Shown here piece after piece: positions 6,357 through 38,740 of a stretch of DNA of 40,708 nt (its first letter is position 1; every line of letters begins with the position of its first letter). The notes below the pieces were generated by a model. That model was not told the DNA's origin, did not search any database, and worked only from the letters and a program-made list of their open reading frames with translations. This DNA is from an uncultured Candidatus Saccharibacteria bacterium (GTDB lineage: Bacteria; Patescibacteriota; Minisyncoccia; Minisyncoccales; Staskawiczbacteraceae). The translations under genes were made by a program, and so were the position numbers. Location of the stretch: positions 9,263 to 49,970 of the forward strand of contig CAYIDV010000001.1 in the NCBI GenBank assembly GCA_964362315.1, in the 5' to 3' direction.

Positions 6357-6390
6357 TCTTACAACTTTCACAGCTGTGAAAGTTGTAAGA
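6357..6390. repeat. Perfect 34-nt palindrome TCTTACAACTTTCACAG|CTGTGAAAGTTGTAAGA
   Basis: All 17 pairs were checked by hand. It lies 3 nt downstream of the stop of the 6393-6923 gene. The same sequence is embedded in the palindrome at 6961-7010. Confidence 0.95.
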
Positions 6391-6923: not shown

Positions 6924-6960
6924 TATTATCTATTATACCAACAATGAGCGCTCTTATATA

Positions 6961-7010
6961 TCACACCATCTTACAACTTTCACAGCTGTGAAAGTTGTAA
7001 GATGGTGTGA
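6961..7010. repeat. Perfect 50-nt palindrome with core TCACAGCTGTGA
   Basis: TCACACCATCTTACAACTTTCACAG|CTGTGAAAGTTGTAAGATGGTGTGA lies 38 nt upstream of the start of 6393-6923. A TATAAT box sits between the palindrome and the gene on the minus strand. Confidence 0.95.
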
Positions 7011-7121
7011 GAACCTAGAGAATCATGAAGGCAGAATTATATTATAAATAGGTAACAATGAATACTAATTAATTACTAATGGTGGAGATAGTAAGTATTA
7101 CATCACACAATATACAGAGTA

Positions 7122-10033: not shown

Positions 10034-10594
10034 TTATATGCTGATTGTCAATTCTCTTTTGTCTTCTTTAAAATGTTTGAATTTTATTGAAATTATACTT
10101 TTAGGTAATATTTTAGAAACTTTTTCAGGCCATTCAACGGCTACGATATTTTGAGGATTTGAAATTACTTTTTCAAAACCCAACATTTCTAAATTCTTTT
10201 CATCCTTTAATCTATAACAATCTATATGGTAAAACCATTTATACCACAAAACCTGTGATCGCAGGTTTTGTGGCATATTACTTTTTGGGGGGATTTGGAA
10301 TTTTTTCATAAGTATGAAAGTGGGGCTCAATATTTTTTCTTTAATTCCCAGGCCCATAGCAAATCCTTGTAAAAAAGTAGTTTTGCCAGCCCCCAAGTCT
10401 CCTTCTAAGCCCAAAACCAGCGCGGATTTACCGGGTTTTTTCCGTAAAATTTGCTTAGCAAATTTTACGGCGACTCTCTTTGTCTCTTTTTGGCTGTTAG
10501 TAATAATTTTTTCCGAGGGCGAAGATTTGACTTTAATATGTAAATAGATTAGTTTGAAATAAATATCATGGAAGAAGCAAATCAAACAAAACAA
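10034..10594 (-). CDS. tsaE: tRNA threonylcarbamoyladenosine biosynthesis ATPase TsaE
   Basis: The product contains LEGDLGAGKTTFLQGFAMGLGI, SPTFILMK, YHIDCYRL and VEWPE. The true start is uncertain, because the ATG at 10594 overlaps the divergent gene by 27 nt. Confidence 0.85.
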   Translation of the reverse strand: MFCLICFFHDIYFKLIYLHIKVKSSPSEKIITNSQKETKRVAVKFAKQILRKKPGKSALVLGLEGDLGAGKTTFLQGFAMGLGIKEKILSPTFILMKKFQIPPKSNMPQNLRSQVLWYKWFYHIDCYRLKDEKNLEMLGFEKVISNPQNIVAVEWPEKVSKILPKSIISIKFKHFKEDKRELTISI

Positions 10595-16055: not shown

Positions 16056-16126
16056 CACCCGCCCAAGTTTTTGTCCTTATGTGATTTCTATTTTATATGC
16101 GTACCAGACAAAAACTTGGGCGGGTG
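16056..16126. repeat. Hairpin with a perfect 20-bp stem and a 31-nt loop
   Basis: CACCCGCCCAAGTTTTTGTC (16056-16075) pairs with GACAAAAACTTGGGCGGGTG (16107-16126). It lies between the ComEA-like stop and the yebC start. Confidence 0.85.
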
Positions 16127-32783: not shown

Positions 32784-35495
32784 TTAGGCCGTATTAATTT
32801 TATCTATAACATCTTTCAAATTGTCTGCTTCCTTATTTTTACCTGCTAATCTTAATCTATCAAGCTCATCTCTCATTTCAGACATTTTTACAGGATCAGT
32901 AACCCACTTCTTTAACTCATTAAACTTAGATGTAGGCAACCTGTCTATTTGTTTGCCTAAAGATTTTGCCCTTATATTTCTTAGGAATGCTACATTTCCC
33001 ATTGCGCTCTTTGACAAGTTTGATATCTTATCTGTCCTTTGGTAATCTTCATTAACTAACTCTTGCTCAGCATCGCCATATGTCGTTTGCCAGGGCAAAT
33101 TTTTTGTTACGGCAATTTCTCTTGCTCTTCTCTCTATTGCTGGTCTGTCATATTTCCTGTATAGAGGATTTGACTTTATGGCCTCTCGTAAAGTATTTGA
33201 GCGATATTTGTCGTTTGATTCTTGCATCAATTCTCCAACAACCTTATAGTCGTCATCAATCATATCAAGTATATTTCTTTTATTTGCTTCATGCAAAAAC
33301 TTTGCTCCTCTGGCAGTTTTTTCTTTAGCCTCCTTTATAACGTCTTTGTCGCTCATATTTTCTATATTATCTATTTTCATCATAGCAAAGTTATGAGATT
33401 GCACATCTCTTGTAGCCTTTGTCTGGGCTTCTCCCAAAGACATTCCATTTTTTATGTCTTGGTCATACCTTGCCATAAATTCTTTAAATTTCTTTGCATC
33501 AACCAAATCGGCATTGTTTTTGGTGAAATCGCTTCCTGAAATTCCAAATCTCATTGCATTATTCATGGCTTCCTGCTGTTTTTCTTTGTTGCCGAGCAAA
33601 TAAAGCGCATCATTTTGGGCTAACACAGTATCAATAGCGGCTCGTTCCTCATCAAATACTGCGCTTTTTCTCATGTTAAATAGCGCTTGACTGCCTCTAT
33701 TTTCTTGCACGGCTTTATATCTTTTTAATGGTTCTTCCGTCTTTTTTCTGTTTCTTTCTTGTTGCGCTAAATCAGCAGTTCCCGGGTCAATTGCCCCACT
33801 CCATTCTCCCACCCTTGTTGCCCAGTCAGACACTGTTGCCTTAATATTGCTTCTGCCACTTAATACAATACCCGCGCCCCTTAATGCAGTTGCCATTCCA
33901 TTTAGCGCCATATCTGTTGTAGCTCCTGCGCCAGTTGTTATTCCCTTCCATGCCACTGGTGCACCAGTTTTTATTCCTTGCCAAACAGAGCCTGGCGCAG
34001 CGTTTATTGAATTCTTTGTAGCTTCCCACCCGTTTCTCCATACATTTGGATCTTTTATAGCTGAAACAGCAGCTCCTCCAGTTTGCCATAGGGCACTTAC
34101 ACCGCTCATCAATGCCCCTGGAGCGGCTTTTATCCCTCTTAATCCCACTCCTGGCGCAGCTTTTAGCCCTTCCCACCCAGCTCTTGCTCCAGTTCTTATA
34201 CCTCGTGCTCCAGCTCTTATACCTCGTGCTCCTGTTTTTATGCCTTCCAAACTAAAAGCTTTGCCAGCCGCTGATTTAATGCCGCTTGCCATACTTTTCC
34301 ATCCCTCCTTACTCCCTAATTTGGTTAATCCCTTCCCGCCCATCTTTAATGCCCCTTTTCCTACTGTTCCCGCCAGAGAAGCGCCGCCAGTGATAATTGC
34401 TGCTACAATTGCGGCGGTGGCTGCCATTACCAATTTAGCTATGGCGCTGGATTTCATTGCCAATTTTAGGCCAATGAGCATAAACATTAAAACAATTAAA
34501 AGATGAGTCGTATTTTTGACAAGTGCTATATAGATGGCTTGTGCTCCACTTGTATCTATAAATTCAGGGTTGAAAGATGCAAGCACATCCATAGCTAATC
34601 TTAAAAAAAAGGTTGCTATCAACCCGGCAAAACACCATTTCAAGAATTGCTGCCACCAAGTGCTCCAAGCCTTCTTTGCCCCCTCAAAAGGAAAAACCCT
34701 TAAGGCAAAAGCCAAGGGCGACAAAATAAACAAAATTGCCAACATAGCGTATCTTATTACATATGTTAATATTAGCCAGAAAAAAGTTGCCGCAACCGTA
34801 AGATGAATCAAACCAAGATAAGAGCTAATCCCAAAAAACTCTGCCGCCTTCACTATATCAGGAGTCCTTTTATCTAATTCTCCCCAGATTGCATGTATTT
34901 GACCTACCATCCCAGTTGAAGAATCAACAGTGTTAATTCCCAAAAAACTTAGCATAGCGATATTGGCTATATCAATCATAAAGCCGACAAATACTAAAGA
35001 AAAATTGATTAAAAGAGCGGTTATTAACAAAGGAACTAATAATTTTTTGTACTGGTCCAAACTTAAAATGAAAGCCACGGCCACCCCTATGAATCCCAGC
35101 GTTAAAATTATATTGGCCCATAATTTTACAGCATTCCAGGCAGCTACAAAAACAGGGGCTAAATAAGAAGTGTCAATATTTGTTATTGCCCATCTGCCCA
35201 ACTCATCTTTTAAAAGAATATTGGTAACAGCACTAAATACATAAGACAAAACATAAGCAGCGGTGTAACCAATATAATAAATAGAATAGGCAAGTCCTTC
35301 TAATATTGCAATCGCAATCTGTTCTAAACTAGGAATAACTGCTTTAATACCTGCAAAACCTAGACGCAATACTTTGGCTATGGGGCCGAATTGAGCTTCT
35401 ACTCTGTTTGGCAGTAAAATTCCTAATAAAACAAAAAACAAAACAAGAGAAAACCCTATTCTTTTATGTTTTAACAAAGAGTTAAAAATGGACAT
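32784..35495 (-). CDS. Large polytopic membrane protein (VirB6/TrbL-like role inferred) with a Gly/Ala-rich repeat linker and a soluble C-terminal domain
   Basis: The product is 903 aa. The first ~370 aa hold at least 8 hydrophobic segments. GARGIRAGARGIRTGARAGWEGLKAAPG repeats follow, then a charged domain of about 350 aa. The role is inferred from its position next to VirB4/PrgI-like genes. Confidence 0.45.
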   Translation of the reverse strand: MSIFNSLLKHKRIGFSLVLFFVLLGILLPNRVEAQFGPIAKVLRLGFAGIKAVIPSLEQIAIAILEGLAYSIYYIGYTAAYVLSYVFSAVTNILLKDELGRWAITNIDTSYLAPVFVAAWNAVKLWANIILTLGFIGVAVAFILSLDQYKKLLVPLLITALLINFSLVFVGFMIDIANIAMLSFLGINTVDSSTGMVGQIHAIWGELDKRTPDIVKAAEFFGISSYLGLIHLTVAATFFWLILTYVIRYAMLAILFILSPLAFALRVFPFEGAKKAWSTWWQQFLKWCFAGLIATFFLRLAMDVLASFNPEFIDTSGAQAIYIALVKNTTHLLIVLMFMLIGLKLAMKSSAIAKLVMAATAAIVAAIITGGASLAGTVGKGALKMGGKGLTKLGSKEGWKSMASGIKSAAGKAFSLEGIKTGARGIRAGARGIRTGARAGWEGLKAAPGVGLRGIKAAPGALMSGVSALWQTGGAAVSAIKDPNVWRNGWEATKNSINAAPGSVWQGIKTGAPVAWKGITTGAGATTDMALNGMATALRGAGIVLSGRSNIKATVSDWATRVGEWSGAIDPGTADLAQQERNRKKTEEPLKRYKAVQENRGSQALFNMRKSAVFDEERAAIDTVLAQNDALYLLGNKEKQQEAMNNAMRFGISGSDFTKNNADLVDAKKFKEFMARYDQDIKNGMSLGEAQTKATRDVQSHNFAMMKIDNIENMSDKDVIKEAKEKTARGAKFLHEANKRNILDMIDDDYKVVGELMQESNDKYRSNTLREAIKSNPLYRKYDRPAIERRAREIAVTKNLPWQTTYGDAEQELVNEDYQRTDKISNLSKSAMGNVAFLRNIRAKSLGKQIDRLPTSKFNELKKWVTDPVKMSEMRDELDRLRLAGKNKEADNLKDVIDKINTA
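34186..34248. repeat. Three tandem 21-nt units inside the 903-aa gene
   Basis: The units are GCTCCAGTTCTTATACCTCGT / GCTCCAGCTCTTATACCTCGT / GCTCCTGTTTTTATGCCTTCC. They encode the (A/T)GARGIR repeats. Confidence 0.8.
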
Positions 35496-35605
35496 ATTTT
35501 GAATATTTATTGATTATATCATAAATTAAACAGTCAACGAGCTGTTAATATCCACAACCAAGATTCATTAACTATTTTGATACTAAGGACTATTAAGTTT
35601 CAAAT

Positions 35606-35651
35606 AAAACACTCTGCAATTCTCACAGGTGTGAGAATTGCAGAGTGTTTT
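35606..35651. repeat. 46-nt palindrome with core TCACAGGTGTGA
   Basis: AAAACACTCTGCAATTCTCACAG/GTGTGAGAATTGCAGAGTGTTTT forms 22 bp with a GG centre. It lies 50 nt downstream of the stop of 35701-36228. Confidence 0.95.
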
Positions 35652-35700
35652 ATAATTAGGGAATGCTTTAAGATTTTATAGATATTGTATTTGATTAGAG

Positions 35701-36228
35701 TCATATTTCTTCAATTAAAAATATTTTTACGTATTGGTCTAAAGAATGTAATTGCAATAATTGTTCTGTGTTTTCAGAAACATCATAAGGGGTTATCCAT
35801 ACACTTTGCTGAAACATTTTATATCCTAAATTTTTCAAAATACTTCTTAATAGATCCCTAGATTTTCTATATTTGGCAGGCATATCAAAAATTAACATTA
35901 TCCATTTACTGTCTTTCCTTTTCTTTTTCGTTTCAACTCTAAAACTTGATTTGAGAGCCTTGTCTATCCCCTTTTTAGTAATAATAATCCCTCTTTTACC
36001 CTCTAAGTTTTTAGCTTTTATATAATTTTTTCTCTTCAAATAAATTATTAATTTGTAGAATTTTTCTCTGCCGATTTGCTTAAGATATTTATATGAAATG
36101 GAATCTTTAGGGCCAAGCAAAACAGTTTTTATTGTGGGGTATGGGTAAAATTCTGGAATACTATCAACAGTTCTTTCCAAAAAATTATATAGATCCCAAA
36201 GAAATTTATCTGTAATTCTTGTTTTCAT
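35701..36228 (-). CDS. wHTH + Cas2-like (PaaX-like) small DNA-binding protein, copy 2
   Basis: The product is 175 aa. Its C-terminal 75 aa are nearly identical to copy 1 (WIMLIFDMPAKYRKSRDLLRSILKNLGYKMFQQSVWITPYDVSENTEQLLQL...). The N-terminal half is more diverged. Confidence 0.6.
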   Translation of the reverse strand: MKTRITDKFLWDLYNFLERTVDSIPEFYPYPTIKTVLLGPKDSISYKYLKQIGREKFYKLIIYLKRKNYIKAKNLEGKRGIIITKKGIDKALKSSFRVETKKKRKDSKWIMLIFDMPAKYRKSRDLLRSILKNLGYKMFQQSVWITPYDVSENTEQLLQLHSLDQYVKIFLIEEI

Positions 36229-36270
36229 TTTCTACTTAATTTTACCATTCGGCAAAATATCCCACAATAC

Positions 36271-36316
36271 AAAATACACCACAATACTCACAGCTGTGAA
36301 TATTGTGGTGTATTTT
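36271..36316. repeat. 46-nt palindrome with core TCACAGCTGTGA (one mismatch)
   Basis: AAAATACACCACAATACTCACAG|CTGTGAATATTGTGGTGTATTTT lies 43 nt upstream of the start of 35701-36228. A partial extra copy of the left arm lies at 36250-36270. Confidence 0.9.
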
Positions 36317-36379
36317 GCCGACTATTAGGCTATAAACTGACTGTCGACTTGGCTAAAGGCTATTTAACAATTTTAAATT

Positions 36380-38469: not shown

Positions 38470-38515
38470 TTTTAACGGCTCTCATCCGCCAGCTGGCGGA
38501 TGAGAGCCGTTAAAA
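38470..38515. repeat. Perfect 46-nt palindrome centred on CAGCTG
   Basis: TTTTAACGGCTCTCATCCGCCAG|CTGGCGGATGAGAGCCGTTAAAA starts 4 nt after the peptidase stop. Confidence 0.95.
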
Positions 38516-38525
38516 ACAGTCAATT

Positions 38526-38560
38526 AAACGGCTAAAATGGCAATTTTAGCCGTTTTTTCT
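38526..38560 (+). terminator. Rho-independent terminator of the M23 peptidase gene
   Basis: AAACGGCTAAAAT-GGCA-ATTTTAGCCGTTT is followed by TTTCTGGTTTTTT. Confidence 0.7.
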
Positions 38561-38576
38561 GGTTTTTTATACCCAA

Positions 38577-38624
38577 AAACCCCCTGCAAAAAGTTGACGA
38601 CCGTCAATTTTTTGCAGGGGGTTT
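38577..38624. repeat. 48-nt hairpin palindrome (23-bp stem)
   Basis: AAACCCCCTGCAAAAAGTTGACG-AC-CGTCAATTTTTTGCAGGGGGTTT has one G-T pair. Its CCTGCAAAA...TTTTGCAGG motif is shared with the hairpin at 40395-40424. Confidence 0.9.
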
Positions 38625-38688
38625 AATATTGACGGGGTCGGACCCCGCCTAACTATTTTTAATCACAAGAACAGGTAAACATTTCAAT

Positions 38689-38728
38689 CACAAAAATTCA
38701 ATGGCTCACTCGAGTGAGCCATTGAATT
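38689..38728 (-). terminator. Rho-independent terminator of comM
   Basis: AATTCAATGGCTCACTCGAGTGAGCCATTGAATT is a perfect 34-nt palindrome, followed on the minus strand by TTTTTG. Confidence 0.7.
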
Positions 38729-38740
38729 ATTTAGTTTAAC

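Follow-up and report, generated by a model that had tools for sequence, protein, structure and literature searches.

In Cas1-Cas2 complexes, a Cas2 dimer binds along the DNA duplex. It has been reported that PaaX, a regulator containing a Cas2-like middle domain, binds TGATTC-N27-GAATCA in Escherichia coli with a 39-bp footprint, and represses its own promoter Px by hindering RNA polymerase (PMC9493321). The regulator class and its autorepression logic are already known. Here we analyzed a stretch of 40,708 nucleotides from an uncultured Candidatus Saccharibacteria bacterium (contig CAYIDV010000001.1; hereafter the window), in which two paralogous genes each lie between two palindromes (module 1 and module 2). 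We consider it probable that these genes encode minimal PaaX-type dimeric autorepressors with cognate operators flanking the gene, whose specificity has diversified among paralogs and would be encoded in both protein domains. The new elements are the double flanking, a family-wide residue-to-base code, the apparent reading of DNA by a Cas2 fold, and a leaderless promoter geometry. The palindrome-gene-palindrome layout that an initial annotation had described for module 2 was borne out, with boundaries 1-2 nucleotides (nt) wider, and module 2 is, as it had proposed, a diverged second copy of one module: the module-1 paralog has the same layout.

Pfam, NCBIfam and Foldseek related the two proteins to PaaX and Cas2 only, which ruled out an HUH (Y1) transposase of the IS200/IS605-like type. 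In Pfam, both paralogs matched a single family, PF20803 (PaaX_M, the Cas2-like middle domain), over residues 103-171 (67.7 and 70.5 bits versus a cutoff of 24); no match to the PaaX N-terminal domain was returned for either, and none to the PaaX_C effector domain, the module-2 protein ending at residue 175 directly after the Cas2-like domain. The NCBIfam equivalog model for PaaX, TIGR02277, scored far below its cutoff (21.5 and 24.1 bits versus 264.55). In an AlphaFold2 model (pLDDT 76), helices 5-22 and 44-52, the recognition helix (54-66) and the wing (70-83) make up a winged helix, which is followed by a linker helix (85-98) and a Cas2-like beta-alpha-beta-beta-alpha-beta domain (109-172). 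The model's top Foldseek match was E. coli PaaX (8a39; E 1.6e-4) across both domains, with a poor global superposition (TM 0.34), followed by many type II-A Cas2 structures (probability 1.0, 26-31% identity over ~70 residues). In addition, hhalign aligned residues 56-165 to residues 54-162 of E. coli K-12 PaaX. The fold search was needed: a sequence search of PDB with the profile or with the C-domain alone gave a marginal Cas2 match and noise. Asp115, within an FD[IVM]P motif, is invariant, distant members included, and E. coli PaaX has SEGL at that position. TTHA0973 was rejected as a relevant relative, being a TetR-type PaaR.

A word-indexed search returned 565 family proteins at E <= 1e-5, and an exhaustive profile search, counted in representatives of 50%-identity clusters, returned 4,879 at E <= 1e-3 and 1,498 at E <= 1e-10; among the 150 best profile matches listed, lengths are mostly 170-200 amino acids, with some shorter fragments. 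As far as sampled, the family is confined to Patescibacteria. Databases name its members 'hypothetical' or often 'Cas2', the latter because Cas2_II models match the protein (E 1e-7 to 1e-9) and the NCBIfam Cas2 model TIGR01573 scores marginally above its cutoff. Neither cas1, other cas genes nor a CRISPR array was found in the window (by neighbor annotation and, for the array, Tandem Repeats Finder), no cas Pfam families were present in the neighbors of those looked-up loci that have recorded gene calls (L161-L175), and no paa genes were found among the window neighbors of either paralog. A phage or defense origin was rejected, as IMG/VR viral contigs, phage records and PHROGs yielded no relatives and PADLOC matched Cas2 models only. 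In the literature collection searched, we found no paper linking PaaX with the Candidate Phyla Radiation (CPR)/Patescibacteria or with Cas2.

Palindromes at the gene ends

We surveyed loci that encode homologs, 80 from genomes and 80 from metagenomes, and scanned 687 kb of these loci plus the window for palindromes with zero or a short loop and 14 or more matched nt in each arm. In the 80 genome loci, palindrome density was 4.06/kb within 125 nt of gene ends versus 0.10/kb elsewhere, a 40-fold difference that ties the palindromes to these genes and argues against a generic genome-wide repeat. A palindrome was present on at least one side in ~70% of loci, no farther than ~60 nt from the start or 25 nt from the stop, and 47 of 82 loci had one on both sides. 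The upstream and downstream copies of one locus showed 0.14 differences per position, compared to 0.59 between loci.

All half-sites follow one 19-nt plan, A-18 T-17 A-16 YYMY A-11 A W T-8 TT N R M R G-1, which the window arms obey as CAA-N3-TCACAG. The other centers seen in the family are ACGG|CCGT, CGA|TCG, AAG|CTT, CAA|TTG and AAC|GTT. The initial annotation had proposed that a 12-nt core is kept while the arms change. This holds for both window modules, where the core TCACAGSTGTGA occurs at just four sites (6368, 6980, 35623 and 36288), every one flanking a paralog (8 strand matches versus 0.13 expected; 0/100 shuffles reached 8). It does not hold for the family, since an exact search found the core in 1 of the 80 genome loci.

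Assemblies tend to break, or to carry N gaps or masked runs, at these palindromes (a contig end in L161, an N gap in L163, N runs in L002 and L034), and palindrome frequency is therefore probably underestimated in metagenome assemblies. Beside the gene of one distant member (L168) we observed three copies of a AAATTTCTCGCGA|TCGCG palindrome, one upstream at 800-825 and two in tandem downstream at 1626-1659 and 1684-1715, and the number of sites per gene therefore varies.

Residue-base covariation and promoter register

A mutual-information scan of protein residues against palindrome bases singled out residues 59, 118 and 141. The distal block changes together with residue 59 of the recognition helix: TCTTAC/TCTTGT is found with N59, TAC[CT] with K59 and TAG/TAT with Q59. 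The other two residues belong to the Cas2-like domain. Residue 118 of its beta1-alpha1 loop, three residues after Asp115, covaries with positions -3,-2 (CG with E118, AAAG| with Q118, AAC| with K118). Residue 141 sits at the beta2-beta3 hairpin tip and covaries with base -1, where A (in CGA|, CAA| and CTA|) is found with K/R141, G with Q141 and C with H141. Over 100 pooled loci, TCTTRY occurred with N59 in 18/18 cases, CG at -3,-2 with E118 in 36/36, and [CG]NA| with K/R141 in 15/15. These associations persisted when each 70%-identity cluster was counted once (Fisher p = 4e-6 for N59, 1e-6 for E118 and 1e-9 for K/R141) and with 65% clusters (20 clusters; p = 0.0065, 0.014 and 7e-5, respectively).

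The main rules were set on the genome loci and tested on 39 metagenome loci less than 90% identical to any training protein. In this replicate TCTTRY predicted N59 in 8/8 cases, ACGG|/ACGA| predicted E118 in 9/9, and CGA| predicted K141 in 2/2. Furthermore, 6/7 distant members (profile E ~1e-18 to 1e-21) have family-type palindromes beside the gene, and all four distant members with a CGA| center have E118 and K/R141. Gln-A, Glu-C, and Lys/Arg at G-containing steps are commonly cited amino-acid/base preferences, and the pairings seen in the family agree with them. By the ferredoxin-like topology, residues 115, 118 and 141 are expected at the same end of the sheet and should form one surface.

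Both window paralogs fit these rules. They share the center CACAG|CTGTG and a near-identical Cas2-like domain (S/A118, Q141), but have different distal blocks and a different residue 59, with N beside TCTTAC in module 1 and K beside ACCACA/CTCTGC in module 2. The identity pattern reported earlier for the two proteins was reproduced (66% overall, 53% over residues 1-100 and 85% over 104-175), and the match between the shared core and the near-identical C-termini is now backed by the covariation of residues 118 and 141 with the central bases. In the wider sample the arms do track the adjacent protein variant, through residue 59, as would be expected had the winged-helix half a part in reading them. 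The related proposal that selection acts on geometry rather than on primary sequence is not supported: primary sequence covaries with protein residues, and the arms share the 19-nt plan.

The reverse of the window pair is seen in L006/L026, where the distal block is the same and the center differs, and 0/40 pairs of co-resident paralogs with both sites defined had a palindrome distance <0.3. Co-resident paralogs are somewhat more alike than cross-genome proteins (0.50 versus 0.43 in the N domain, 0.71 versus 0.64 in the C domain). The window pair and L006/L026 suggest that paralogs arise by duplication inside one genome and then change block by block, which would avoid cross-talk.

The upstream palindrome stands in register with the promoter. 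Its center lies exactly 28 nt from the ATG in 9/43 loci and in 12/26 of the replicate (together 21/69). In this 28-nt class, TATAAT or TATAGT occupies +16..+21, just 6 nt ahead of the ATG, a leaderless-mRNA geometry that leaves no space for a Shine-Dalgarno sequence. The match to a -10 box is directional, scoring 3.78 of 6 on the gene side versus 3.2 on the mirror side, and TATAAT itself was found seven times, on the gene side only. A -35-like TTNACR at -7..-2 of the palindrome leaves a 16-bp spacer to the -10 hexamer. The site therefore spans about -47 to -9 of the gene's promoter, which is the layout of an occluding repressor.

The window palindromes lie farther from the ATG than 28 nt (62 and 66 nt), and the candidate -10 boxes of both modules keep to the family pattern of a box 6-10 nt ahead of the ATG. 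In module 2 the duplicated half-site stands between the palindrome and the candidate -10 box, and the upstream palindrome also scores as a promoter on the minus strand (-35 TTCACA/-10 TATTTT). A TATAAT-like box 6-8 nt ahead of the ATG without a Shine-Dalgarno sequence was observed in many loci (for example L009, L022, L026, L083, L095 and L134, and at 6932-6937 of the window), which suggests that leaderless mRNAs may be common for this gene family in Patescibacteria. In the literature collection searched, we found no paper combining Patescibacteria, leaderless and promoter.

Probable autorepression and its alternatives

In the mechanism that we favor, the protein would be a minimal PaaX-type regulator, a winged helix joined to a Cas2-like dimerization domain with no effector domain, and its dimer would bind ~38-bp dyad-symmetric sites on both sides of its own gene. 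Recognition helix 54-66, in which residue 59 would be a main determinant, would read the distal block (-17..-11), and the beta1-alpha1 loop (118) and the beta2-beta3 tip (141) would read the central block (-5..-1), with the Cas2-like dimer placed on the dyad. Overlapping the gene's own promoter by way of TTNACR and the TATAAT-like hexamer, an occupied upstream site would block RNA polymerase, resulting in negative autoregulation as for E. coli PaaX at Px. Many family members would be transcribed as leaderless mRNAs, and paralogs in one genome would diverge one block at a time, each reading its own sites. A bolder proposal, that the Cas2-like domain is a sequence-reading and possibly DNA-cutting module on the dyad in which residues 118 and 141 specify the central base pairs, is put forward tentatively, and we regard it as possible but rather doubtful.

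Several observations weigh against autorepression. About 30% of loci have no palindrome, although some of these stop at a contig end or contain an N gap; it is unusual for a regulator that most sites stand beside its own gene; and the protein is without a ligand-binding domain that could relieve repression. The center of the downstream copy lies 18-22 nt past the stop in 39/88 loci, so that its left arm begins at the stop codon, and autorepression does not explain this. That copy lacks a directional -10 box at the register of the upstream copy, and it persists, more degenerate, where the next open reading frame (ORF) is convergent. Among 166 positions that vary between upstream and downstream copies, 56 are symmetric in both yet different, which is not predicted for binding by one protein. 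Generic promoter scans of the AT-rich window found no more sites than in shuffles. The covariation rules were in part set with the data in view, as in the case of K59 and Q59, whose patterns were refined on sight, and clustering gave only rough control of relatedness. Finally, the N and C domains showed the same modest correlation (r = 0.29 each) in Mantel and partial Mantel tests, which did not single out the N-domain. With per-residue determinants present in both domains, we rejected the N-domain as the sole specificity domain; as single residues track bases all the same, the specificity signal lies in single residues of both domains. The initial annotation had the N-terminal half reading the variable arms, and of this idea the residue 59 rule stands, in ~100 loci, while an overall N-domain preference does not.

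Four roles are conceivable for the downstream copy: operator of the next gene, roadblock or insulator, terminator hairpin, and looping partner. The next gene mostly starts 28-120 nt beyond it, and although the palindrome offers no directional -10 as a next-gene promoter, TATAAT-like boxes of the next gene's own often follow within 30-100 nt. The distance between upstream and downstream centers is 575-691 bp and shows no helical phasing (Rayleigh p > 0.2), phasing mattering little at that length.

Alternatively, the palindrome-gene-palindrome unit could be a selfish or mobile cassette, in which an active Cas2-like nuclease cuts at the dyad in the manner of REP/RAYT systems (repetitive extragenic palindromes and their REP-associated tyrosine transposases) and seeds solo palindromes. 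We consider this unlikely. The catalytic type of the invariant Asp115, replaced in PaaX, and the position of residues 118 and 141 in loops next to it, tracking bases at the dyad, are in its favor, as is the presence of several paralogs per small genome between unrelated housekeeping genes (74/152 neighbor genes are singletons). Cas2 nuclease activity is, however, dispensable in Cas1-Cas2 integrases. Proteins from one syntenic slot do not cluster together, and this, like the greater likeness of co-resident paralogs, would be expected of a cassette; several of the slots themselves are kept across species with proteins just 51-60% identical. The slot fpg-X-holA recurs in at least three genomes (the window, L026 and L041), and five share the holA side, L034 and L076 included, which argues that the genes are long-lived residents. 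Neither target-site duplications, a transposase nor an HUH fold was found, relatives were absent from viral contigs and phage records, and the upstream copy keeps a fixed register with promoter and start codon, as regulation predicts.

Solo palindromes bear on the same question. Family-type solo palindromes are rare in the loci scanned (~9 in 427 kb), unlike REPs, and most are intergenic and bracket neighboring genes. Two of them, placed in frame within variable loops of tsaE and of dprA, favor past movement. The tsaE orphan of the window encodes NMPQNLRSQVLWY in a variable loop, and the L041 tsaE has a loop of equal length made from simple repeats, without a palindrome. At 2714-2749 of L040, the palindrome GTCCCATAATTCTCACGG|CCGTGAG... 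is in frame in a hypervariable linker of the upstream dprA, and it differs from that locus's own operator type. Such solo copies hint at small regulons or at some past palindrome mobility, and by its sequence the tsaE orphan is probably the site of a third paralog outside the window, predicted to be of the K59/E118/K141 type. The strongest version of the bolder proposal above, if true, would have the protein nick or cut the flanking palindromes, and both the cassettes and the solo palindromes, those in tsaE and dprA included, would be, or would have been, mobile. A second palindrome was observed within the tsaE ORF at 10439-10473.

The symmetry of the sites bears on whether a protein or a stem is under selection. 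Arm-to-arm symmetry is >=0.93 at -17..-11 and -5..-1, falls to 0.72-0.88 at -10..-6 and collapses past -19, absolute values that are inflated by the picking of palindromes for their symmetry. Two strong blocks with a looser spacer favor a protein dimer, since a stem would not weaken mid-way. It is quite improbable that the palindromes act as RNA or DNA hairpins (terminators, mRNA-stabilizing or -processing stems, cruciforms) with the stem itself selected, and with a protein that is unrelated to them or that binds or cuts an RNA hairpin like a Cas2 or VapD-like RNase. As RNA, the palindromes are predicted to fold into highly stable hairpins (-22 to -38 kcal/mol, z -6.8 to -11.9; -35.8 kcal/mol for the module-2 downstream copy), and the titles of PDB entries identify some Cas2 and VapD proteins as RNases. 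Yet more than half of the arm mismatches (102/195) are non-wobble, and G-U-compatible mismatches number 55 versus 38 A-C, a difference estimated as not significant, for which reason we rejected an RNA wobble signature. A downstream copy whose start coincides with or closely follows the stop codon, and whose center lies as near to it as described above, would suit a hairpin, as would flanks that are slightly A-rich 5' and T-rich 3', and the module-2 upstream copy scores terminator-like for ksgA. In the 28-nt class, however, the -10 box lies inside the palindrome, which puts the upstream copy outside the gene's own mRNA. The symmetric-but-different positions count in favor of a hairpin, but a generic stem leaves the tracking of bases with residues of the adjacent protein unexplained, and Rfam gave no match in the window. 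Where the initial annotation had allowed for hairpin, cruciform or dimer-binding geometry, block-wise symmetry thus supports the dimer, and the weak spacer and the lack of a clear G-U bias speak against hairpin and cruciform.

The compensated change that the initial annotation had pointed out is real, as the 56 positions demonstrate. Template-switch correction of quasi-palindromes is an established mutational mechanism in E. coli, and it is a plausible neutral cause of these positions. That the perfect dyad is nothing but a mutational by-product of template switching, function being limited to a short conserved motif, is very improbable. In its favor, 56 such positions stand against fewer than 1 roughly estimated from independent single-arm changes, and a single-base polymorphism switches the upstream copy between perfect and imperfect, but gene-end placement, the 19-nt plan, block-wise symmetry and covariation would all go unexplained, and template switching complements the autorepressor reading more than it rivals it.

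Window features and comparison with known systems

The coordinates of both modules and of the related features are collected in the table.

Features of the two modules and related elements in the window (strand as reported; a point marks features without strand)
Feature	Position	Strand	Remarks
Module-1 paralog, 176 amino acids	6393-6923	-	66% identical to module-2 protein; N59, S118, Q141
Module-1 upstream palindrome	6959-7012	.	arms 25-27 nt; TCTTAC distal block; center CACAG|CTGTG
Module-1 downstream palindrome	6357-6390	.	2 x 17 nt, perfect; same 34 nt as inner part of upstream copy
Candidate -10 box TATAAT, module 1	6932-6937	-	8 nt ahead of ATG; near-leaderless mRNA predicted; read from sequence
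Orphan family-type palindrome, 38 nt, TATACCACAAAACCTGYGA|TCGCAGG...	10240-10277	.	in frame in tsaE (10034-10594, -); no paralog adjoining
Module-2 gene, mini-PaaX protein, 175 amino acids	35701-36228	-	ORF translation
Module-2 upstream palindrome, predicted operator	36270-36317	.	arms 36270-36293/36294-36317, 24 nt, 96% complementary, no loop
Extra distal half-site, module 2	36249-36269	.	pairs with 36301-36321 at 90%; between palindrome and start codon
Module-2 downstream palindrome, predicted second binding site	35604-35653	.	arms 35604-35627/35630-35653, 24 nt, 100% complementary
Candidate -10 box TAAAAT, module 2	36239-36244	-	10 nt ahead of ATG; read from sequence

Module 1 lies between fpg and holA, and its downstream palindrome begins 2 nt past the stop codon and ends 17 nt ahead of the holA ATG. 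Module 2 lies between ksgA and a gene for a 903-residue protein without a Pfam match. Its upstream palindrome has the center CACAG|CTGTG and the distal block ACCACAAT, a type found with K59. The one arm mismatch of this palindrome is polymorphic, the perfect version being present in one sister contig (L161) from the same groundwater site. The extra arm arose from a 17-nt tandem duplication (36253-36287, 2.1 copies by Tandem Repeats Finder), and together with 36318-36321 it lengthens the dyad to TCGGCAAAATA...TATTTTGCCGA. The downstream palindrome of module 2 has a 2-nt center and the core TCACAGGTGTGA, and it lies 47 nt past the stop codon and 133 nt ahead of the ATG of the next gene.

That next gene (32784-35495, minus strand) encodes the 903-residue protein, which apparently has several hydrophobic segments and carries a Gly/Ala/Arg-rich repeat (GARGIRxGAR) from a 21-nt tandem repeat at 34181-34245; TGATATAAT, which reads as an extended -10 box, stands 17 nt ahead of its ATG. 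Four long palindromes (38470-38515, 38526-38555, 38577-38624 and 38692-38731) fill a 270-bp gap between convergent genes for a LysM/M23 peptidase and a Mg-chelatase-like ATPase (38470-38731). Two of them share AACGGCT, and all are off the family half-site plan; they may be bidirectional terminators. The stretch between two co-directional genes contains, at 16056-16126, an inverted repeat whose perfect arms of 20 nt (CACCCGCCCAAGTTTTTGTC) are separated by a 31-nt spacer, and a hairpin with the same GGGCGGGTG motif occurs at an unrelated locus (L013, 3020-3052). This repeat, which has no Rfam match, may represent a conserved terminator or small RNA.

Few studies have addressed gene regulation in CPR/Patescibacteria, uncultured organisms that have small genomes and few assigned regulators. 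For a large family, the likely DNA targets can be read from the genome, beside each gene. If the residue-to-base rules hold, sites and small regulons would become predictable across thousands of metagenomic genomes. Base-specific reading would be new for the Cas2 fold and would bear on the relationship of Cas2, VapD and PaaX. Were the bolder proposal above true, the family (~1,500 clusters at 50% identity, E <= 1e-10) would represent a two-module DNA reader with a simple code, the winged helix taking the distal block and the Cas2-like domain the center, as well as a living intermediate between Cas2 nucleases and PaaX-type repressors. The geometry of -10 box, 6 nt and ATG predicts that these genes have leaderless mRNAs in CPR. 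The 'Cas2' label is misleading, and proteins of this family should not count as CRISPR components in surveys.

Of the known systems, PaaX of E. coli and Pseudomonas (8a39, 3l09) shares with the family an N-terminal winged helix followed by a Cas2-like middle domain, and its 39-bp footprint compares with the 38-bp dyad at family sites. PaaX has 316 residues with PaaX_C, whereas the family protein has 175 without it, keeps the Cas2-type FD[IVM]P in place of SEGL, and has no paa genes nearby. Unlike the PaaX site, the family dyad is specified throughout, including a center that covaries with the Cas2-like domain; sites stand on both sides of the gene, and several paralogs occur per genome, all in Patescibacteria. 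Type II Cas2 (5xvn, 5zyf) has the same ferredoxin-like fold and an LxxFDMP motif with the catalytic-type Asp, and Cas1-Cas2 complexes, as described by PDB titles, contain a Cas2 dimer along a DNA duplex. Cas2, however, is a stand-alone protein of ~90-110 residues, while the family protein fuses ~70 C-terminal Cas2-like residues to a winged helix, has housekeeping neighbors without cas1 or an array in the window, and is predicted to read DNA sequence-specifically.

Autorepressors of the MarR type are likewise small winged-helix dimers with a palindromic operator over their own -35 and -10 boxes, but the family differs from them in its Cas2-like dimerization domain, which appears to add to specificity, in its longer operator (38-48 bp) and in the second copy behind the gene. 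In REP/RAYT systems (REPtrons), too, the gene is flanked by short variant-specific palindromes, and several variants per genome each have their own type; the family protein is not an HUH/Y1 transposase, its upstream copy is in register with promoter and start codon, and its palindromes are not dispersed in numbers in the loci scanned (~0.02/kb away from the genes). Rickettsia palindromic elements, finally, resemble the family-type palindromes found in frame in the variable loops of tsaE and dprA, but they measure 100-150 bp versus 36-38 bp for the family elements, of which there are two cases of putative insertion.

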